DNA of 39,943 nt from Actinomycetota bacterium (lineage in GTDB: Bacteria > Actinomycetota > Humimicrobiia > Humimicrobiales > Humimicrobiaceae): positions 2,475-42,417 of the forward strand of contig JAQVEM010000001.1 in the NCBI GenBank assembly GCA_028697935.1, read 5' to 3'. Under the pieces are notes generated by a model that was given only the letters and a program-made list of their open reading frames with translations, ran no database searches and had not been told where the DNA came from. Shown piece after piece: positions 120 through 30,424 of this stretch (within the stretch, counting starts at the first letter, position 1; every line of letters starts with the position of its first letter). The position numbers and the translations under genes were made by a program.

Positions 120-149
120 ATCTGCGTAATCAGCGAAATCTGCGTGAAA
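120..149 (+). repeat. Phased 7-mer array, ATCTGCG dialect (atctgcgtaatcagcgaaatctgcgtgaaa)
   Basis: Three 7-mers (ATCTGCG / ATCAGCG / ATCTGCG) spaced about 9-10 bp apart, ending in GTGAAA. The same unit recurs more than 15 times in the window in both orientations. Confidence 0.9.
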
Positions 150-240
150 TAACTTGAGCTAATTAATTAATTTAAAAGTTATAAAATTTAGCTAAAAACA
201 TTAATGCATAGTAAAAGAACATATCTTTAATTATAAATTT
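150..240 (+). repeat. AT-rich core module M2, copy 1
   Basis: By eye about 90% identical to the reverse complement of 25285-25376, including the flanking array types. Confidence 0.8.
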
Positions 241-242
241 TT

Positions 243-420
243 ATCTGTGATATCTGTGCTATCTGTGAGAGGTTAACAAAAAATCTGTGATATCTGTGCT
301 ATCTGTGAGAGACCTTATCTGTGTAATCTGTGTAATCTGTGAGAGGTTAACAAAAAATCTGTGATATCTGTGCTATCTGTGAGAGACCTTATCTGTGATA
401 TCTGTGCAATCTGTGAGAGG
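243..420 (+). repeat. Tandem array of five ATCTGTG-dialect triplet units (higher-order period 74 bp, about 2.4 copies)
   Basis: Five units of (t)atctgtg x3 plus agag, with alternating spacers gttaacaaaaa and acct. Odd-numbered units start at 243, 317 and 391, giving a 74-bp period. All units have the same orientation. Confidence 0.9.
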
Positions 421-4542: not shown

Positions 4543-5601
4543 TTATTTTAATATATTTAATTTATTATTGATAATATTATTAACATCCTTCATTGTAATA
4601 TTCTTTATATTATTAATTAAATCTTTTTTCATAATAATTCTTTGAATTAACCTATTCTTTTTTAATATGAATTTATATTTTTTTTCATAGTCATTTTTAG
4701 ATAATCCCAAAAAAATATAAAACATCTTTTCATATTTTTTATATATATTATTAAAAATATTTATATCTATTAATGATGGCGTATAATCATCCTTTATGTA
4801 TATTCCTTTTATCTCATATTTTGGTTTCTTGCCCTTTATTATAATAAATTGTATGACCATTCCAATTCTAACATTGTTTTTATATATCATATCAAATATG
4901 AAATTTCCTAAAGAATAACATATTATACCTTGTTTATATTCCATAACTGGTTGAATAACATGAGGATGATGTCCTATTATAATATCTGCACCCGCATCAA
5001 TGAATTCTTTTGTATTTTCAATTTGTTTATAGGAAGGAATATTTATATATTCATTACCCCAATGAAAAACAAGTATTTTACAATCTGCGTTTCCCATCTT
5101 ATTAATACAATTTAGTATTGCTTCACGATTATAATCTTGATATAATTTAGTATTATAAATATCATGAATATCATTAAATGCAGCAATAGATATTTTCATA
5201 TTGTTTTTGTAATAATCATAGATAGTATTTTGATATCTACCTATAATATTAAGTCCATTATTTTGAAGAATATTAATAGTACTATTAAAACCCTCTGGAC
5301 CATATTCTAAAATATGATTATTAGCTATATTAATAACATTTATTCCACAATTTTTGAGAAATTGTATGAAATTTTCATTACCTGCAAATGTCATAGAATC
5401 CTTAAATTCAGAATTCGGTAATATTGGAGCTTCAAGATTAATTAAACCAATATCTGAATTAGCAAATATTTTTAAAAAACTTTCTTGCCAGGGAACACCA
5501 TTATGTTTATTAAAATTGCTAATTATACCCTTCCCTTTATGATATGAAAGATTTGCTGGAAAAACATCTCCTGTTGCAGTTAAAATTACTTTATTTTCCA
5601 T
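4543..5601 (-). CDS. CapA-family (PGA_cap, metallophosphoesterase-like) protein
   Basis: 352-aa ORF with the motifs ANNHILEYG, HWGNEY, GADIIIGHHPHVIQP and YSLGNFIFD, which are characteristic of the CapA family. Confidence 0.8.
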   Translation of the reverse strand: MENKVILTATGDVFPANLSYHKGKGIISNFNKHNGVPWQESFLKIFANSDIGLINLEAPILPNSEFKDSMTFAGNENFIQFLKNCGINVINIANNHILEYGPEGFNSTINILQNNGLNIIGRYQNTIYDYYKNNMKISIAAFNDIHDIYNTKLYQDYNREAILNCINKMGNADCKILVFHWGNEYINIPSYKQIENTKEFIDAGADIIIGHHPHVIQPVMEYKQGIICYSLGNFIFDMIYKNNVRIGMVIQFIIIKGKKPKYEIKGIYIKDDYTPSLIDINIFNNIYKKYEKMFYIFLGLSKNDYEKKYKFILKKNRLIQRIIMKKDLINNIKNITMKDVNNIINNKLNILK

Positions 5602-5602
5602 T

Positions 5603-5890
5603 TTATAATTTTTTACTTATTAAATTATGATATATTTCTGATAGTTTATAGATTTGTCTATCTAAATTGAATTCTTTTTTTAGATATTCTCTGCTCCTTA
5701 ACCCTAAGTTAATTCTTTTTTCTTTATTATTTATAAGTTCTTCCATTTTATTAGCTATTTGCTCTATGCCTCTTTGCCTAACCAAAATGCCCCTTCTACC
5801 AAAATTTAGTACCTCTGGAATACCAGCATGATCAGTTGCAATACAAGGTAATTGCATAGCTTGTGCCTCCGTTAAAACCTCAGCAATCAC
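5603..5890 (-). pseudogene. C-terminal fragment of a GT-B (GT4-like) glycosyltransferase
   Basis: The 95-aa ORF begins with a GTG in the middle of the C-terminal domain (TEAQAMQLPCIATDHAGIPEV, the EX7E region). The N-terminal domain is absent. Its stop abuts the start of the CapA-like gene as an operon junction would. Confidence 0.75.
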
Positions 5891-6278
5891 GACTTTGATA
5901 ATAAGGAGATGGATTTCAAGTTGAATTTCCTGTATGACTTTTTCTATGTGAAATATTATTAATTTGTTTGGAAATAAATTCGGGATATCTATGACGGAGA
6001 ATATTCTTTGTTAAAATAGGTATAAATTTAAAGGCAATAATGTTATTTTAAAATATCTGATGACATTATTTTATTATAATCAAATAAATTTTATAATAAT
6101 CTATATTTCTATAAGCTAATCAATCAGCTGAGTTAATTTTTTTCAGCTATTCAGCTATTTAAGATTTACTCCAGCTAAGCATATCTTTGATTTGATTATA
6201 ATTTTTTAAAAAAGTTTGTATTAACAAATCTGTAGCAGGTAATAATAAATTCTTTACGATATTATATCCTATATTCAT
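5891..6278 (-). pseudogene. Decayed duplicate of the 5' ~130 codons of the CapK-like gene 3158..4501
   Basis: Aligns by eye with 4112-4501, including the ATG (cat at 6276-6278 versus 4499-4501). There are many substitutions and indels, and no ORF of 60 aa or more survives. Confidence 0.8.
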
Positions 6279-9812: not shown

Positions 9813-10555
9813 TCTCACGCAGATTGCGCTGATTCCGCAGATAAGTGCTCTCACAGATAACACAGATTTTAGTTTACCTCTCACAGATTACACGGATAAC
9901 ACAGATAAAAATTTATAATAATAAGATGTTAATATTAGAAGAATTACCGCACGCAGATTGCGCTGATTACGCAGATTTCTTTATTTATGTTAAGAATATT
10001 AAGCACAATCTAAAATTCTGAATTTATCATAGTATATATTATTAAAACCAAAACTGGGCTTAGACATTTCCTTTGCGATTTCAAGAGAGTTAAAATTATA
10101 ATATATTATCAATCATCCATCTGCGTTATCTGCAAAATCTAAGTACTGTATATTTTCATCTCACGCAGATTAAAGAATTTATAATTATAACATTAATAAT
10201 CATCTAACACTTCAAGTATTTATCGCAGTTTATAGTCATTGAAATAAATCATTTGGCTCAGATATTTTTTATTAGATTCCAATATAGTTAAAATTATAAT
10301 GTTTAATAATCATCCATCTGCGTTATCTGCGATATCTGCGTGAAATATAAATAATTATGTTACAGATAACACAGATTATTGTTTTGTAATAAAAAGAGTT
10401 TAAAGTACTTTACTATAAATTAGATCCTCTTACCTTTTTAATTAAGCTATGAATTTTAGGGTAGGTAAAATATAACAAATTTAGATTATTTTGAATTCTT
10501 ATTATAATTAAATCCAATCTGCGGAATCCGCGTTTTTATCTGCTTAATCCGCGGG
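9813..10555. repeat. Composite repeat region: phased 7-mer arrays alternating with core modules M5, M3, M4 and M1
   Basis: Plus-strand order (R = array as CRCAGAT, F = array as ATCTGYG; c = C/G-type, t = T/A-type). R-c 9813-9842, R-t 9848-9867, R-t 9878-9906, M5 9907-9947, R-c 9948-9976, M3 9977-10118, F-c 10119-10140. Then R-c 10159-10170, M4 10171-10315, F-c 10316-10345, R-t 10363-10376, M1 10397-10506, and a degenerate F-c 10517-10555. No ORF of 60 aa or more. Confidence 0.9.
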
Positions 10556-18063: not shown

Positions 18064-18293
18064 ATATTACTTAACCTCCATATAACTTATATAAAATTTA
18101 ATTTAATGCACATATTACTAATATGTTATAACCTTATCCTTCCTCCAAATACTATGCATTAATAAAGTTATGTTTTTATACATATAGTATATTTCTTTCT
18201 ATTGCCCCCAAAAGAATGGGAAAGTAAAGGTAATGTATCTTTATTTGGATAGAGGGAACGGATGAAATCAATGATTGGTTGGTATTCCATAGT

Positions 18294-18362
18294 CTACAAA
18301 TTAGTCCACCAATTTACACAAATTAAGGAGAATCCACAAATTTACACAAATTAACACGAATT
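18294..18362 (+). repeat. Phased 8-mer arrays, CACAAATT/CACGAATT dialect (two triplets), left flank of GxxExxY gene 1
   Basis: The sequence is ctacaaatta GTCCACCAATTTACACAAATT aaggagaa TCCACAAATTTACACAAATTAACACGAATT. The period is about 10 bp, and the array runs into the stop codon of 18362..18739. Confidence 0.85.
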
Positions 18363-18739
18363 TATAAGATGAGGCGTTTATATACTAAACTTGAGGATCC
18401 AAAGTTGACTAATAAGCCAACTCTAAGTTTGGTAGCCTTTAGGTAGTTTAATAATTGAGAGATATGATCGTTAGAGATTTCTGCAAGAGCTTTTACTTCA
18501 ACAATTATATTATCAAAGCATAAAAAATCGGCTTTATAACATTTATCTAGGGTTTTCCCTTTATATACTATACGAATATCCTTTTCTTTTTCAAAAGGTA
18601 TTCCTTGCTCTAAAAATTCAAGCATTAAAGATTCTTGATATACAGCTTCAAGAAATCCCGGTCCCAATTCCTTATGAACATTCATACACGCTCCAATTAT
18701 CTTGTAGCATTCTTCTTTATACATAATATCATTATTCAT
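18362..18739 (-). CDS. GxxExxY protein (PD-(D/E)XK nuclease-fold, PDDEXK_3-like), copy 1
   Basis: 125-aa ORF with the family motif GPGFLEAVYQ (G-x-x-E-x-x-Y) and a downstream D...EVK (ADFLCFDNIIVEVKA) typical of PD-(D/E)XK cores. Confidence 0.85.
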   Translation of the reverse strand: MNNDIMYKEECYKIIGACMNVHKELGPGFLEAVYQESLMLEFLEQGIPFEKEKDIRIVYKGKTLDKCYKADFLCFDNIIVEVKALAEISNDHISQLLNYLKATKLRVGLLVNFGSSSLVYKRLIL

Positions 18740-18750
18740 AATTCAAGTAA

Positions 18751-18770
18751 AATTGTGCAAATTGGTGGAC
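18751..18770 (+). repeat. Inverted partner of the 18304-18321 motif (aattgtgcaaattggtggac)
   Basis: Its reverse complement gtccaccaatttgcacaa matches gtccaccaatttacacaa (18304-18321) at 17 of 18 positions. It lies between the GxxExxY start and the stop of the upstream gene. Confidence 0.85.
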
Positions 18771-19747
18771 TATAAATTATATATTCCCGGTTTATATTTG
18801 GCTAAGTTTCGTGGATCGCTGAACCACTCTACTGTTTTTTCAAGACCTTCTCTTAAAGGATATTGAGGTTCATAACCAGTTAGTTCTTTTATTTTGGTGT
18901 TATCACATCTTAATCTGAAGACTTCAGAATGTTCGGGTCTTAACCTTTGTTCTTCAACTATAAGATTTGCATCACTGTGCATTATATCTTTAATCAATGC
19001 AAATAATTCTTTTATAGAAATCTCATCATTTGAACCGATATTTACGGTTTCACCAATTGCTTTATCGCATTTAGCTAATAAAATAAAGCCATTACAAATA
19101 TCTTTCACATAATTGAAATCACGAGTTGGAGTAGTATCACCAATCTTAATTTCTTTATTTCCACTAGCAATTTGAGTGATAATTGTCGGAATCACCGCCC
19201 TGGCAGATTGACGAGGACCATAAGTATTAAATGGACGAACTATAGTAACAGGAAGTTGATAAGCATAATAAAAGCTCGTAGCAATCGCATCAGCACCAAT
19301 TTTACTGGCACTATATGGTGATTGAGGTTGCAATGGATGTTTTTCATCTATGGGAACATATTGTGCGGTACCATAAACTTCGCTGGTAGAAGTTACTAAT
19401 ATTCTTTTGACCTTACAATCTTTAGCTGCTTGACAAATATTCAAAGTGCCTTTGATATTAGTATCTATAAAGCTTTGTGGAGCAATATATGAATAGGGAA
19501 TAGCAATCAATGCAGCTAAGTGGAATATAACATCTATCCCCTTACAAATTTCTCTACAATATGCTGGATCTCTTACATCTCCACAAACAATCTCTAAATT
19601 AGAAGTTTGTTGAATATCTTCCAGCCATCCCCAGTAATTAAAAGAATTATATTGAGCTAAAGCTCTAACATCATATCCTTCCGCTAATAAAGATTCTGTT
19701 AGATGTGACCCAATAAATCCATCAGCTCCCGTAACTAAAACTTTCAT
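18770..19747 (-). CDS. NAD-dependent sugar-nucleotide dehydratase/epimerase (extended SDR, LegB-like 4,6-dehydratase type)
   Basis: Rossmann motif [12 protein letters not shown], then [11 protein letters not shown], and a catalytic YSASK. I use the ATG at 19747, which is preceded by AAGGAAG. The tracked GTG extension (VDRRKED) reads into the repeat motif. Confidence 0.75.
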   Translation of the reverse strand: MKVLVTGADGFIGSHLTESLLAEGYDVRALAQYNSFNYWGWLEDIQQTSNLEIVCGDVRDPAYCREICKGIDVIFHLAALIAIPYSYIAPQSFIDTNIKGTLNICQAAKDCKVKRILVTSTSEVYGTAQYVPIDEKHPLQPQSPYSASKIGADAIATSFYYAYQLPVTIVRPFNTYGPRQSARAVIPTIITQIASGNKEIKIGDTTPTRDFNYVKDICNGFILLAKCDKAIGETVNIGSNDEISIKELFALIKDIMHSDANLIVEEQRLRPEHSEVFRLRCDNTKIKELTGYEPQYPLREGLEKTVEWFSDPRNLAKYKPGIYNL

Positions 19748-19762
19748 ATCTTCCTTTCTTCT

Positions 19763-20073
19763 GTCCACGAATTTTCACAAATTAGCACGAATTATTATAA
19801 TTATCTAAATTTATTATAATCCAATTTTGCTATTTAATTAATTCAACTTTGCCAAATCTCTCAAAACCCTTATTCCCCTTGACTTACATTGAGGACAGGT
19901 AACGACGAGTATGTCGTTTATTCTGGAAAGTATCCATCCGCTCTCTGTCCTTACCCTCTCAACATTCTCAATACATGTAAAGCTTCAGCACGCTCCGACT
20001 ACACAAATTTTTCAATCCTCTAATCCCCTTTCAACCTTCTCTATTTCGTGTTAATTTGTGCAAATTCGTGGAC
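19763..20073. repeat. 311-bp non-coding element bounded by ~31-bp terminal inverted repeats of the CACGAATT dialect (MITE-like)
   Basis: The left end is GTCCACGAATTTTCACAAATTAGCACGAATT (19763-19793). The reverse complement of the right end (20041-20073) is GTCCACGAATTTGCACAAATTAACACGAAATAG, with about 28 of 31 identical. The 247-bp core has no ORF and contains a GC-richer hairpin segment. Confidence 0.7.
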
Positions 20074-20226
20074 TAAGTTAGAGGTTTGTTGAATATCTTC
20101 CAGCCATCCCCAATAATTAAAAGAATTATATTGAGCTAAAGCCCTAACATCATATCCTTCTGCTAATAAAGATTCTGTTAGATGAGACCCAATAAAACCA
20201 TCAGCACCCGTAACTAAAACTTTCAT
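20074..20226 (-). pseudogene. Duplicated 5' fragment (codons 1-51) of the SDR gene 18770..19747
   Basis: 153 bp align with 19595-19747 with 8 mismatches by my count, and the encoded 51 aa are identical. The reading frame then runs into the repeat (tail [10 protein letters not shown], tracked ORF 20041..20226). Confidence 0.9.
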
Positions 20227-20336
20227 TTATTCAATCCTTTATATTATTCCATAAAAAAAATAGTGGTTAATTTATAAAGTATTTATTAAGTTTTTTTGTA
20301 TCAATTAATAAATCTTTTACTGTTCATAATGTAAGC

Positions 20337-23405: not shown

Positions 23406-23489
23406 AGATGTGACCCAATAAATCCATCGGCTCCCGTGACTAAAACTTTCATATCTTCGTTTCTTCTGTCCACGAATTTTCACAAATTT
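23406..23489 (-). pseudogene. Third copy of the SDR gene 5' end (about 15 codons plus 37 bp of upstream leader including the GTCCACGAATTTTCACAAATT motif)
   Basis: About 81 bp match 19703-19783 with 3 mismatches. Two are synonymous, and one is in the Shine-Dalgarno region (aaggaag to aacgaag). Confidence 0.85.
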
Positions 23490-23501
23490 CCTAATTAAAC
23501 T

Positions 23502-23528
23502 TTCTCAACCTTCTCAACCTTTACAATA
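23502..23528 (+). repeat. Short phased array, TTCTCAACC dialect (period 9)
   Basis: The sequence is ttctcaacc ttctcaacc tttacaata. Related tctcaac/tctcaat pairs lie at 19957-19972, and a tttcaacct lies at 20029-20037. Confidence 0.6.
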
Positions 23529-25126: not shown

Positions 25127-26120
25127 CTCTCACAGATTGCACAGATGACACAGATAAGGTCTCTCACAGATTACACAGATAACACAGATAAAAATTTATA
25201 ATAATAGGTTGTAAACATTAGCAGGATTACCTCACGCAGATTACGCTGATTTCGCAGATAAGTTCTCTCACAGATAGCACAGATATAATTTATAATTAAA
25301 AATATGTTCATTTACAATGCATTAATGTTTGTAGCTAAATTTTATAGCTTTTAAATTGATCAATTAGCTCAATTTATCTCACGCAGATTACGCTGATTCC
25401 GCAGATATGGTCTCTCACAGATTACACAGATATCACAGATTATAATTATAATAAGATTGTTAAAACTGTATCAATTAATTAAAATTGCGTCTTATCGGCA
25501 TATATTAACATTCCCCTTGAATTAATTTTTAAAATCAGAATAAGTTCTTAGAGCATTACCATTCTCTATTCTAAAAAACTAATAAGGGCTTTTTTAAATA
25601 ACCGTTAGTATAAACCATGTTTCTATTCCAGATAAAATTATCATATCCATCAATTTCATTATAAGTGTTTTTAAAGTAATTCTGAAGTTAATTCATTATG
25701 ACGGTAAGAAATAGCACAATTTACATTATACATTAATTCTTTTAATTTCACTATAAATCCTTATCTGTGATATCTGTGATATCTGTGTTATCTGTGTTAT
25801 CTGTAACATAATTTTTTATATTTCACGCAGATATCGCAGATAACGCAGATGGATGATTATAAATACATTATAATTTTAACTATATTGAATCTATTAAAAA
25901 ATATCTGAGCCAAATGATTTATTTCAATGACTATAAACTGCGATAAATACTTGAAGTGTTAGATGATTATTAATGTTATAATTATAAATTCTTTAATCTG
26001 CGGAATCAGCGTAATCTGCGTGCAGTAATTCTTCTAATATTAACATCTTATTATTATAAATTTATATCTGTGTTATCTGTGCTATCTGTGAGAGACCTCA
26101 TCTGCGATATCTGCGTGAAA
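25127..26120. repeat. 1-kb ORF-free composite repeat region between wzx start and the next gene's stop
   Basis: Left half, all R orientation: R-t 25127-25155, R-t 25161-25189, M5-like 25190-25229, R-c 25230-25259, R-t 25265-25284, inverted M2 25285-25376, R-c 25377-25406, R-t 25411-25440. A unique 322-bp centre spans 25441-25762. Right half: F-t x5 25763-25805, R-c 25821-25850, inverted M4 25851-25994, F-c 25996-26023, inverted M5 about 26024-26065, F-t 26066-26096, F-c 26100-26120. Confidence 0.9.
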
Positions 26121-27078: not shown

Positions 27079-27501
27079 CCTCACGCAGATTACGCTGATT
27101 ACGCAGATTTCTTTATTTATAATTTGAGTGTCAAACATAATCTAAAGTTCTGAATTTATCTATGAATATTGCCAATAATATCAATTAATAGTTGGTTTGG
27201 AGATTTCTTTAACGAATTCAAGAGAGCTAAAATTATAAAGCATTATCATTCATTTATCTGCGTTATCTGCGATATCTAAGCACAGTATATTGTCATCTCA
27301 CGCAGATTACGCTGATTTCGCAGATTAAAGAATTTATAATAAGAATTATAATCATAATCTAAAATCCCAAAGTATTTTCTTATAATTTTGTAACTATACT
27401 CAATTATATGGCCTAAAGCTTTTTAAAGATTTCACTACAGTTAGATTAAATTATTAAACATAAAAACATCCATCTGCGTTATCTGCGCTATCTGCGTGAA
27501 A
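27079..27501. repeat. Composite repeat region (R-c, M3 copy 2, F-c, R-c, diverged M4-like core, F-c)
   Basis: R-c 27079-27107, M3 27108-27255 (alignable to 9977-10118), F-c 27256-27277, R-c 27296-27325, a core 27326-27471 whose ends resemble M4, and F-c 27472-27501 (atctgcgttatctgcgctatctgcgtgaaa). Confidence 0.85.
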
Positions 27502-27915: not shown

Positions 27916-28225
27916 TCTCACGCTGATTACGATAATTCTATTTTTCATTTTATTTCACGCAGATTACGCTGATTTCGCTGATTTTTTTACTTATAATAAG
28001 AATATTCAAAATAATCTAAATTTGTTATATTTTACCTACCCTAAAATTAATAGATTAATTAAAAAGGTAAGAGGAGCTAATTTATAGTAAAGTACTTTAA
28101 ACTCTTTTTATTACAAAACATTAATCTGTGATATCTGTGCAATCTGTGAGAGGTGAAAAAAATCTGTGTTATCTGTGCAATCTGTGAGAGACCTTATCTG
28201 CGTTATCTGCGAAATCTGCGTGAGA
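27916..28225. repeat. Composite repeat region (degenerate R, R-c, inverted M1, two F-t units, F-c)
   Basis: Degenerate tctcacgctgattacgat 27916-27933, R-c 27953-27982 (tttcacgcagattacgctgatttcgctgat), inverted M1 27991-28103, F-t 28122-28153, F-t 28162-28193, F-c 28194-28225. The tracked plus-strand ORF 27881..28087 simply reads through these repeats. Confidence 0.9.
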
Positions 28226-28230
28226 TATCA

Positions 28231-28677
28231 CTAAATTAGGGCAGAAAGTTTTCGCCAATCACGAACCTTTTCTAGATATCCTGCTTGTATTGCTGATGCT
28301 ATAGAACGACAGGGTAGATTTTGTTCAACTATATCTTCTTTGCTTAAGGTTTTCAAATCCAGATCAGGATAATCTTTCAAGGTAGCTCGCATAATCTTCA
28401 AAAATACATTGGGCCAGGTGCTCATTGGTTTCCCTTGAGAATGATATTCACGATTATATCTCTGTATATATATTCTACAATCTTCTTTGTATTCTTCACT
28501 TATAATAATTCTTTTGGCAAAATCAAATATTTTTTTCATAATTGCATTAGAGACACTTGGTTTAGGAATCACTGTTCTTCTTGAAATATACTTATCTAAA
28601 TGAGAATTATAATATGTAACATACTTTTCTTCATTCCCATCAAGTCTTGGAATATTCATTTTTACTTTTGGCTTCAT
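28231..28677 (-). CDS. Hypothetical protein (no family recognised)
   Basis: 148-aa ORF with a good GAGGAG Shine-Dalgarno 6-7 nt upstream of the ATG. It is basic and hydrophilic, and I see no recognisable motifs. Confidence 0.5.
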   Translation of the reverse strand: MKPKVKMNIPRLDGNEEKYVTYYNSHLDKYISRRTVIPKPSVSNAIMKKIFDFAKRIIISEEYKEDCRIYIQRYNREYHSQGKPMSTWPNVFLKIMRATLKDYPDLDLKTLSKEDIVEQNLPCRSIASAIQAGYLEKVRDWRKLSALI

Positions 28678-29518: not shown

Positions 29519-29548
29519 AAAAAGCCACCTAAATTCCCGAAAAATAGT

Positions 29549-29950: not shown

Positions 29951-30424
29951 TTATATAACCTTTTCGGTGTCTTCGGTGCTATCGGTGGCTAATATTTTTG
30001 TATTGTAAATTACCTTTCGGTGCTCTAGGTGTTTTCGGTGGCTAATAAAAATAAACAGCAGAGTCAATATTGCTCCAAAGAGATTCGCTATCATATCCAT
30101 AGGATTAAAGGTTCTATAAGGCAAGAGATATTGTAAACATTCACTGATTATAGCAGAACCGCCTACAATTAGTATATATTTCAAAACAGATTTATGATTA
30201 AAAATTGGATTGCCTTGCCTTTCCGCTATCAAATATAAAGGGATAAAGACAAGAAAAGATACAAAATGAATAAGATAATCCAATCTAAATTCAAATATAG
30301 ATTTGTGAATGATACGATTTAAATCATCTCCCAAGGGAATAACATTCATTGCTAAAACTATAATCAGCCATCCCCAAAATAACCATCTTGCCCCATTTGC
30401 CATCCTTTTATCTTGTATCATCAT
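29951..30424 (-). CDS. VanZ-like family membrane protein
   Basis: 157-aa ORF with 4 TM-like segments. It has DYLIHFVSFLVF and SECLQYLLPYRTFNPMDMIANLFGAI, resembling VanZ-family blocks. The last ~30 codons are encoded by the TTCGGTG arrays. Confidence 0.6.
   Translation of the reverse strand: MMIQDKRMANGARWLFWGWLIIVLAMNVIPLGDDLNRIIHKSIFEFRLDYLIHFVSFLVFIPLYLIAERQGNPIFNHKSVLKYILIVGGSAIISECLQYLLPYRTFNPMDMIANLFGAILTLLFIFISHRKHLEHRKVIYNTKILATDSTEDTEKVI
29961..30043 (+). repeat. Two phased triplet arrays, TTCGGTG dialect, separated by a 22-bp spacer
   Basis: 7-mers ttcggtg / ttcggtg / atcggtg start at 29963, 29972 and 29981. 7-mers ttcggtg / ctaggtg / ttcggtg start at 30016, 30025 and 30034. The period is exactly 9, and each triplet ends in GGCTAAT. 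Confidence 0.9.

Follow-up and report, generated by a model that had tools for sequence, protein, structure and literature searches.

A GxxExxY gene enclosed by inverted arrays of phased repeats is probably one copy of a widespread gene-and-repeat module

The window analysed here (the whole 39,943-nucleotide (nt) stretch of contig JAQVEM010000001.1, assigned to an Actinomycetota bacterium) has a guanine-plus-cytosine content of ~29%, and all of its long open reading frames (ORFs) lie on the minus strand. Its gene content is that of a capsule or polysaccharide cluster, with glycosyltransferases, sugar epimerases, PGA_cap, a flippase-like protein, an aminotransferase and a decarboxylase. Profile searches of the window proteins found no transposase, integrase, recombinase or RAYT (a tyrosine transposase associated with the repetitive extragenic palindrome, REP) encoded across the 40 kb. 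The gene with which this work is concerned, G1, encodes a small protein of the GxxExxY family and is enclosed by inverted arrays of short, phased repeats, which are referred to below as arms; the variant of the repeated core that is used at a given place is referred to as its dialect.

The membership of G1 in the GxxExxY family had been proposed in an initial annotation made from the sequence alone, and was borne out by profile searches in which G1 matched PF13366 (PDDEXK_3) at 1.6e-40 (138.5 bits, cut-off 22) and TIGR04256 (GxxExxY) at 4e-44 (149.7 bits, cut-off 35). Two further paralogues in the window, G2 and G3, are 38-40% identical to G1 and likewise scored above the family-model cut-offs. 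The G28-x-x-E31-x-x-Y34 motif of G1 reads G28-F-L-E31-A-V-Y34 in the translation, and its catalytic residues D71, E81 and K83 (D...E-x-K) are invariant in the three window paralogues and in 28 sequences. An AlphaFold2 model of G1 was obtained with a predicted local distance difference test (pLDDT) score of 94.2 and a predicted template modelling (pTM) score of 0.87, and its top structural matches in the PDB were the Cas4 protein SSO0001 (E = 1.4e-4), lambda exonuclease and tRNA-splicing endonucleases, with template modelling (TM) scores of 0.5-0.6. As modelled, G1 is a PD-(D/E)XK-fold protein that is assignable to no specific functional family. A sequence search of the PDB with G1 returned nothing significant (T7 endonuclease I at E = 0.35), and G1 belongs to no PADLOC or PHROG family, with only weak local matches (E = 1e-4 to 5e-3) around the catalytic strand. 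Viral contigs gave a single weak relative, the plasmid collection gave eight records and no annotation of repeats, and Rfam 15 gave no match at the gathering threshold and only chance hairpins at E <= 1. The GxxExxY/PF13366 family comprises 17,342 clusters at 50% identity. Some of its members (e.g., P0122, P0132 and P0134) are 250-290 amino acids (aa) long with two tandem GxxExxY domains, and may represent genuine fusions or else neighbouring units whose gene calls were merged.

The nearest protein relatives of G1 come from anaerobic-digester metagenomes, and several of them are labelled Cloacimonadaceae or Cloacimonetes, which makes an origin in Cloacimonadota likely, though not proven. A protein identical to G1 is labelled 'Actinomycetota bacterium' (an NCBI metagenome-assembled genome, MAG), a 96% relative is labelled 'Caldisericia' and another 'Cloacimonadaceae'; these conflicting labels are probably binning errors in digester metagenomes.

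On the plus strand, positions 18304-18321 read GTCCACCAATTTACACAA and positions 18753-18770 read TTGTGCAAATTGGTGGAC. The reverse complement of the latter, GTCCACCAATTTGCACAA, agrees with the former at 17/18 positions, and the inverted pair can be extended to 32 nt with 81% complementarity. When the 195-nt flanks of G1 were compared, the best ungapped inverted repeat scored 17, whereas shuffled flanks scored 8.4 +/- 1.1 (maximum 16) and 0/3000 shuffles were as good. The arms are made of tandem ~10-bp units, and their tips, GTCCAC and GTGGAC, face away from the gene. Upstream of G1 (in the orientation of the gene) just two good units are found in the window, whereas orthologues carry three, and this arm overlaps the TAG stop codon of the adjacent epimerase (18770-18772), which is supplied by the tip. 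Downstream of G1 there is a distal arm, which provides the partner of the upstream one, and a proximal arm, which is a period-10 triplet at 18333-18362 (CCACAAATTT ACACAAATTA ACACGAATT); among seven orthologues the proximal arm has a mean pairwise identity of 0.94, compared with 0.72 at third codon positions. The pattern CACRAATTNNCACRAATT has nine matches in the window against 0.26 expected, and elsewhere in the window the G1 dialect is found only at 19763-19794, 20042-20073 and 23468-23488. The inverted pair, the outward tips, the left-hand triplet and the recurrence of the dialect had all been described in the initial annotation, and each was recovered.

The flanks of other GxxExxY genes were compared in two sets of loci, which are numbered with the prefix L. 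The genome set held 80 loci on one-genome-per-species contigs from taxa that include Calditrichia, Armatimonadota, Bacteroidota, Chloroflexota, Planctomycetota, Verrucomicrobiota, Ignavibacteria, Patescibacteria, Thermoplasmata archaea and others; for the metagenome set a further 80 loci were fetched, 71 of which were scored. The test was motif-agnostic: the 180 nt on either side of each gene were compared for their best ungapped inverted repeat, and a score >= 13 was counted as strong. A strict generic tandem-repeat detector missed most arms, because the spacing of their units mixes 9 and 10 bp; it was dropped, and the inverted-repeat score and a regular expression for the core were used instead. 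Strong inverted repeats were found at 50/80 GxxExxY genes of the genome set (62%), compared with 4/125 control neighbouring genes (3%; Fisher's test, 6e-22), and at 42/71 genes of the metagenome set (59%), compared with 0/14 controls (Fisher's test, 3.5e-5), which is the enrichment that the initial annotation had predicted. In the two sets combined ~60% of 151 relatives from many bacterial and archaeal phyla are boxed alike, and the association spans more than 15 phyla, including archaea, with one grammar throughout. Three of the four matches among the controls could be explained: one is a true RAYT with REPs, one is another ORF boxed by such arrays, and one is a gene between two units. With the core expression, an outward array pair was found within 150 nt of 49/80 GxxExxY genes and 4/130 controls, and an array of any kind lay no more than 150 nt from 75/80 GxxExxY genes. 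A cultured example is provided by Bacteroides finegoldii (WP_032839887.1), in which the unit (TTCACCACAGAGGACGCAGAGGACACGGAGG ... gene ... CTCTGTGACCTCTGTGTCCTCTGTGGTGAA) lies between radA and the gene for a flavin adenine dinucleotide (FAD)-dependent protein.

The anatomy of the arms was counted on 76 parseable units. The modal number of repeats per arm is three, with 141 spacings of 9 bp and 94 of 10 bp, and the tips point outward in 70 units and inward in six. The core is 7 bp long, with the consensus C-R-C-N-R-A-D and an outward CC(R)C tip; the commonest cores are CACGAAT (17), CGCAGAT (9), CACGGAT (7), CACGAAG (6) and CACAGAT (5). The outermost repeat is distinguished by a C before the core (80/90 outermost compared with 8/187 inner repeats), and T(T)(A/G)N is preferred past the tip. 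The arms lie close to the gene, with median gaps of 27 nt from arm to ATG and 15 nt from stop codon to arm, which sometimes overlap, and the median length of the whole unit is ~495 nt. Between the two arms of a unit the unforced core positions 4-7 are identical at frequencies of 0.82-0.96, compared with 0.66 and 0.47 at the two spacer positions, and the same contrast is seen between neighbouring repeats within one arm. Judged from the sequences, conservation of the core and not of the spacer is the pattern that would be expected of repeated protein-recognition sites, unlike that of a base-paired stem.

More elaborate arrangements were also seen. In some Bacteroidota the gene has on each side a whole array pair with outward tips and a loop of 11-20 nt, which resembles the hairpin formed by a REP doublet (REPIN). 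Doubled pairs of this kind make up a 68-nt inverted repeat in L084 (2848-2915 and 3386-3453; a Chryseobacterium gleum MAG), and L028 (3700-4400) contains a tandem field of tip-out array pairs.

The arms also vary with the protein that they enclose. A single core is used throughout the six or more repeats of a locus, and cores differ between loci; in the window, the dialect beside G1 is AATT(C/T)GTG with period 10, that beside G2 is ATCTGCG or ATCAGCG with period 9, and that beside G3 is TTCGGTG with period 9. One core per locus, together with three dialects beside three paralogues in one genome, points to a reader of the arms that is encoded in cis. Protein identity was correlated with core distance (Mantel r = -0.196; 0/2000 permutations as extreme), and the nearest protein relative with less than 85% identity had an identical 7-mer in 32/76 cases, against 6.4 expected; a correlation between protein clade and dialect, also predicted at the outset, is thus present, and both tests favour the interpretation put forward in the initial annotation. 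Mutual information peaked between residues 8-11 and core base 5, and between residues 115-117 and core bases 2 and 7, both peaks exceeding the permutation maximum. Where residue 11 is Thr, core base 5 is G in 25/27 cases, and where it is Ala, Cys or Val, the base is A in 22/22; on a rough tree built by the unweighted pair group method with arithmetic mean (UPGMA), residue and base switch on the same branch eight times, against 2.0 expected. In other phyla, the extra gene-less arrays of a locus lie nearer to the local dialect (Hamming distance 1.2) than to the dialects of other loci (2.08; p = 0.0004).

Gene-less arrays are abundant in the window itself (Table 1). A scan for at least two WTYNGYG cores 9-10 bp apart found ~37 arrays, against 0.26 expected by shuffling, and in the self-similarity of the window there were 20 strict matches at lag 9, one at lag 10 and none at the remaining lags from 6 to 13. 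Some arrays stand alone, some follow one another in the same direction in runs of 3-6 and some meet tip to tip; the commonest arrangement is an outward pair around 125-320 bp of non-coding DNA. G3 has arms of the CACCGAA dialect at 29963-29989 (TTCGGTG TC TTCGGTG CT ATCGGTGGCT) and, in degenerate form, at ~29522-29548; both arms are intact at its orthologue in L013. The gene-less unit of the G1 dialect (19763-20073) has a non-coding interior of 247 nt, is missing from the L002-type allele and lies upstream of the epimerase in L102 and L103. Three MITE-like copies (i.e., resembling miniature inverted-repeat transposable elements) at 1-190, 10345-10534 and 27957-28150 are each ~190 bp long, with interiors that are ~95% identical; their homology stops at the arrays and their flanks are unrelated. 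All three are hybrids, with one arm of the CACAGAT dialect and the other of CGCAGAT, and it may be that one reader tolerates A or G at core base 2, or that two paralogues cooperate.

Two fragments of the epimerase gene that adjoins G1 (18770..19768) are associated with the G1 dialect. A 167-nt duplicate of its 5' end abuts exactly the GTGGAC tip of the gene-less unit at 19763-20073, and a second remnant (23406-23467), of ~20 codons, is 96% identical to the same 5' end and has a solo array upstream. Both fragments are scars of cassette rearrangement in the polysaccharide locus, and related contigs have at least four distinct gene sets upstream of the epimerase. The solo GTCCACGAATTT array upstream of the second remnant is directly adjoined by a further period-9 tandem motif, CTCAACCTT (AAGGTTGAG on the opposite strand), at 23495-23526, which is also found in L008 (~600-640); comparable GGTTGA-like repeats occur in the interior of the gene-less unit (19795-20041).

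Table 1. Coordinates of the GxxExxY genes, arms, gene-less arrays and epimerase fragments in the window
Feature	Position	Strand	Remarks
G1, GxxExxY / PD-(D/E)XK gene, 125 aa	18362..18739	-	PF13366, TIGR04256
Arm upstream of G1 (gene orientation), AAAATTGTG CAAATTGGTGGAC	18741..18772	+	GTGGAC tip 18765-18770
Proximal arm downstream of G1, three period-10 units, AATTCGTG TT AATTTGTG TA AATTTGTGGAT	18332..18362	-	
Distal second arm downstream of G1, two units and tip, AATTTGTG TA AATTGGTGGAC TA	18302..18324	-	partner of 18753-18770
G2, second GxxExxY paralogue, 131 aa	27512..27907	-	
G3, third GxxExxY paralogue, 122 aa	29549..29917	-	
Gene-less unit, G1 dialect	19763..20073	.	arms 19763-19794 and 20042-20073, 32 nt, 91% complementary, tips outward
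Epimerase 5' duplicate	20073..20239	-	13 nt upstream and 51 codons, 92% identical to 19594-19760
Second epimerase 5' remnant, 62 nt, with upstream solo array GTCCACGAATTTTCACAAATT (23468-23488)	23406..23488	-	
Gene-less MITE-like element, arm, 125-nt interior, arm	27957..28150	.	copies at 10345-10534 and 1-190
Two adjacent gene-less array pairs, ~200 bp each (27083-27273, 27300-27498)	27083..27498	.	akin to 25825-26022 and 9945-10350
Intergenic kilobase with ~13 arrays, CACAGAT and CGCAGAT dialects; single, same-direction runs, tip to tip	25130..26117	.	
Six same-direction arrays, ATCTGYG x3 then AGAG	120..417	+	
Four minus-strand arrays, interior, two plus-strand arrays, tips outward	9817..10534	.	

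The G1 gene and its arms are conserved together. The orthologues of G1 have a ratio of nonsynonymous to synonymous substitution rates (dN/dS) of ~0.09, with dS of up to ~1, and their arrays are 0.87-0.94 identical, compared with 0.72 at third codon positions. In a strain-level comparison of 40 related contigs around G1 and G2 the gene units were fixed, variation being confined to adjacent cassettes and to how many extra tip copies were present. Downstream of G1, orthologous loci carry variously PIG-L, a decarboxylase cassette, DegT or an ORF of 148 aa. A 148-aa ORF with no family match occurs in the window (28231-28677), in L012 (1725-2171), in L102 (161-607) and in L109 (3879-4325); copies from different contigs are 46-59% identical, and in several Cloacimonadota-like contigs the ORF recurs next to array clusters and GxxExxY units.

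Exchange of what lies between the arms was seen in one syntenic pair, L142 (1460-1900) and L034 (2007-2646). The arms of the two loci are orthologous (TTAACCAC.AATT.CAC.AATT.CAC ... GTGAAATTCGTGGTTA) and their cargo differs: L142 carries a GxxExxY gene, and L034 carries an unrelated ORF of 194 aa, which is predicted to encode a membrane protein and matches no Pfam family. At a second site of the same pair the unit is present in L034, and a solo arm alone is found in L142. The cargo swap, the solo arm and the tip-joined epimerase duplicate are signs, read from sequence, that recombination may occur at the arms.

The locus is probably, though not securely, one copy of a widespread two-part module consisting of a GxxExxY gene and its inverted arms, i.e., a partnership of the REP/RAYT type built on a PD-(D/E)XK fold. 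From the sequences we infer that the protein would bind and cleave its arrays and that the module would move by a recombination route. The protein may be a sequence-specific reader, and probably a nuclease, of its own arm dialect. The spacing of 9-10 bp is roughly one helical turn, and one protomer per repeat could be bound along one face of the DNA, with base read-out predicted to draw partly on residues 8-11, at the N-terminus of helix 1, and partly on the 114-118 loop. By analogy with the maintenance of REPs and REPINs by a RAYT, gene-less arm pairs, which are 125-250 bp apart, would be a non-autonomous population maintained by the protein. Spread and cargo exchange would most likely proceed via breaks at the tips that are repaired by recombination between array-flanked slots; such a route is preferred to classical transposition because a PD-(D/E)XK enzyme cuts but cannot join.

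Several observations weigh against this interpretation. About 40% of GxxExxY genes have no strong inverted repeat, and the GxxExxY protein, as judged by reading its sequence, is not notably basic. G2 is neighboured by CGCAGAT-dialect arrays (27472-27498 and 27957-27983) with inward tips, and is located between two gene-less units, not within one. The covarying protein columns were chosen post hoc and the tree was a coarse one; moreover, gene and arms are physically linked, and co-inheritance explains part of the correlation between protein and dialect. The orthologues of G1 (85-100% identity) always follow the same epimerase, of the short-chain dehydrogenase/reductase (SDR) type, in 29 independent contig places and in constant orientation, and at least 12 syntenic pairs in other lineages retain the GxxExxY gene in place (proteins 57-86% identical, flanks with 66-86% nucleotide identity). 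The initial annotation had envisaged the presence or absence of the whole unit with clean boundaries at orthologous loci; an all-against-all flank search of 199 loci found no clean empty site or excision, and its one informative pair, L034/L142, is the case that leaves a solo arm. When the 10 nt beyond each arm were inspected by eye in 70 units, the exact ends of which are uncertain, no target-site duplication was evident, and none of the gene-bearing units was encountered at a second location. As its orthologues stay syntenic and under purifying selection, the gene is a stable, selected resident. RAYTs are likewise stable, selected residents (PMC5581495), and the RAYT gene is vertically inherited under purifying selection and does not multiply (PMC5581495, PMC8049555).

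Other explanations of the arms were also considered. The arms might act at the RNA level, pairing in a read-through operon transcript to form a stem that insulates or excises the ORF (e.g., by RNase III), in which case the protein need not touch the arrays; 23S rRNA intervening sequences with PF05635 genes behave in this way. The minus-strand transcript of 18290-18785 is indeed predicted to fold with the arms as a closing 20-bp stem (minimum free energy -125.5 kcal/mol, z = -5.6), which also counts against a protein-read array. In addition, the arms abut the start and stop codons and leave little room for a promoter, there is no intrinsic terminator-like site near the unit, 62/64 GxxExxY genes are co-directional with at least one neighbour, and L103 has a PF05635 gene that likewise lies between inverted repeats of its own. 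However, a stem requires complementarity throughout, and the spacers match at 47-66% where the cores match at 82-96%. Three copies of one 7-mer per arm would be superfluous for a stem, pairing is impossible for the many arrays that stand alone or follow one another in same-direction runs of 3-6, arrays occur in both orientations relative to transcription, and the dialect covaries with protein residues. An RNA-level role is therefore considered unlikely as the main constraint on the arms. There is a similarly small chance that the arrays are a host-wide repeat read by another factor, or landing pads, and that GxxExxY is a passenger or selfish gene in such slots. That the same arms enclose the unrelated 194-aa ORF in L034 speaks for a passenger and against a dedicated reader; the non-coding interiors enclosed by the same arms in the window, the excess of arrays over genes there (~37 to 3) and the position of G2 between array pairs also fit. 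A single host factor is nevertheless unlikely with the same grammar in more than 15 phyla including archaea; furthermore, each of the three dialects in one genome lies beside a different paralogue, protein residues switch together with core bases, PF05635 genes of the same genomes carry a different repeat type, and no other candidate reader is encoded nearby.

The arrays could alternatively be operators, with GxxExxY being an autoregulating DNA-binding toxin-like or defence nuclease that has triple sites on both sides of its gene and a regulon marked by the dispersed arrays. Arrays do stand directly before start codons (at 19763 and again at 23468 the distance to the epimerase ATG is 15 nt, and before a gene in L142 it is 5 nt), and the helical phasing of the repeats is typical of cooperative binding sites. 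Against this, there is no partner antitoxin or immunity gene, no defence family was matched beyond weak local matches, and mirrored sites past the stop codon, outward tips and array-bounded copies are not predicted; the invariant catalytic residues would be needless for a pure repressor. The operator explanation is accordingly thought improbable. Inverted repeats that flank a short segment in a capsule cluster are also the anatomy of Bacteroides capsule invertons, and here inverted repeats of 20-32 nt flank 250-470 bp within such a cluster, as would be expected of an inverton or shufflon, i.e., an invertible segment for polysaccharide phase variation whose recombinase is encoded elsewhere. This was rejected as very improbable: the orientation of G1 to the epimerase is constant in the 29 independent contig places, the window encodes no recombinase, and most units in other phyla lie in unrelated contexts, such as that between radA and the FAD-dependent protein gene in Bacteroides finegoldii.

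A GxxExxY gene partnered with its own arms is consequently the preferred reading. A bolder version of it, which is possible but for now less probable than its negation, is that GxxExxY proteins are a vast, cross-domain family of modular DNA readers or nucleases, in which residue 11 would read core base 5 and the loop at 115-117 would read bases 2 and 7 across three phased sites, and in which gene-less spread and cassette exchange, e.g., at polysaccharide loci, would proceed free of a transposase. If true, that version would describe a new class of selfish or domesticated element together with a simple protein-DNA recognition code. The searchable full-text literature, outside the coverage of which subscription journals lie, does not describe this association of gene and repeat, and mentions the name GxxExxY only in passing and with no function assigned. 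With the gene packaged together with a cognate, rule-based DNA element, a large orphan family gains its first testable role, with a 30-bp substrate, predicted specificity residues and a cultured example in Bacteroides. If the protein acts on the arrays, a partnership of the REP/RAYT type would have been invented a second time, independently, on another fold and in many more phyla, and a widespread class of unannotated intergenic repeats would be explained; cassette exchange at the junctions of surface-polysaccharide loci might be explained as well. The tracking of one base by one residue is a compact read-out that could interest protein engineers.

Among known systems, insertion sequences (ISs) and MITEs resemble the unit in that terminal inverted repeats bound a short coding unit and that there are shorter non-coding derivatives with the same ends and near-identical interiors at several sites. 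They differ in that the GxxExxY unit has no DDE, HUH, serine or tyrosine transposase, that neither a target-site duplication nor a second gene-bearing copy was seen, and that its ends are made of internally repeated units instead of simple inverted repeats. The internally repeated arms recall the ends of Tn7 and Mu, which contain multiple transposase-binding sites. The lack of a transposase, with no target-site duplication seen, sets the unit apart from a classical IS. Two further candidates for the repeats were dropped: the 9-mers have only TTATC in common with DnaA boxes (TTATCCACA), and the 'BrickBuilt' MITE of P. gingivalis, with its 23-nt repeats, is unrelated.

Homing endonucleases, including the PD-(D/E)XK enzyme I-Ssp6803I, are also encoded by very small nuclease-fold genes that occur as single-gene insertions in conserved operons; a cut-and-repair mode of spread is plausible for both, and presence or absence of the unit at a syntenic site, as in the single pair L034/L142 with its solo arm, is a possible further likeness. 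However, a homing target is destroyed by the insertion, whereas the conserved DNA signal of the GxxExxY unit belongs to the element and persists once it has inserted, by which the gene differs from a classical homing endonuclease gene. There is, moreover, no intron or intein, and gene-less copies exist. The 23S rRNA intervening sequences that encode the four-helix-bundle protein PF05635 are similar in being small ORFs boxed by inverted repeats that can pair in the transcript, and the two types of gene are found in the same genomes and even at the same loci. They differ in protein fold and in repeat motif (GGAGTTCAAAGTGC-type in L103), and GxxExxY units lie in protein-coding operons and have arms that are conserved as cores and not as a stem. 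At 478-960 of L103 (and also in L102 and L104) a PF05635 or bAvd-like gene lies between AGTGCGGGAGTTCAAAGT ... ACTTTGAACTCCCGCACT, with GGAGTTCAAAGTGC repeated upstream, which suggests a second, parallel family of genes with cognate repeats.

The closest likeness is to REPs and RAYTs. In both systems one small gene has inverted copies of its cognate repeat on either side, the many gene-less copies in intergenic DNA are single, doubled in inverted orientation or clustered, the repeat variant differs with the paralogue to which it belongs, and the gene is inherited vertically. The two can occur together: in L070, a Phycisphaerae MAG, a RAYT-like HUH transposase with an HVHLL motif (5516-6082) is flanked by palindromic REP-like repeats, and this pair coexists with a GxxExxY unit inside one 6-kb locus. 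The differences lie in the enzyme and in the repeat. The REP/RAYT enzyme is an HUH/Y1 transposase, whereas that of GxxExxY is a PD-(D/E)XK protein, whose Pfam and NCBIfam matches are to PD-(D/E)XK families only, with no HUH/Y1 (IS200-like) domain. A REP is a GC-rich palindromic hairpin with a GTAG head, whereas an arm consists of about three direct 9-10-bp repeats and a tip, i.e., tandem direct repeats with no internal palindrome. Genomes with GxxExxY genes hold many paralogues, not one or few, and the module extends to archaea and to many phyla other than proteobacteria. The REPtron-like character claimed in the initial annotation consequently holds for the inverted cognate repeats and the gene-less copies and fails for the HUH/Y1 enzyme and the palindromic repeat. 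The unit is REPtron-like in its logic and is not a REPtron; it is probably a protein-repeat partnership with a new fold and a new repeat architecture.

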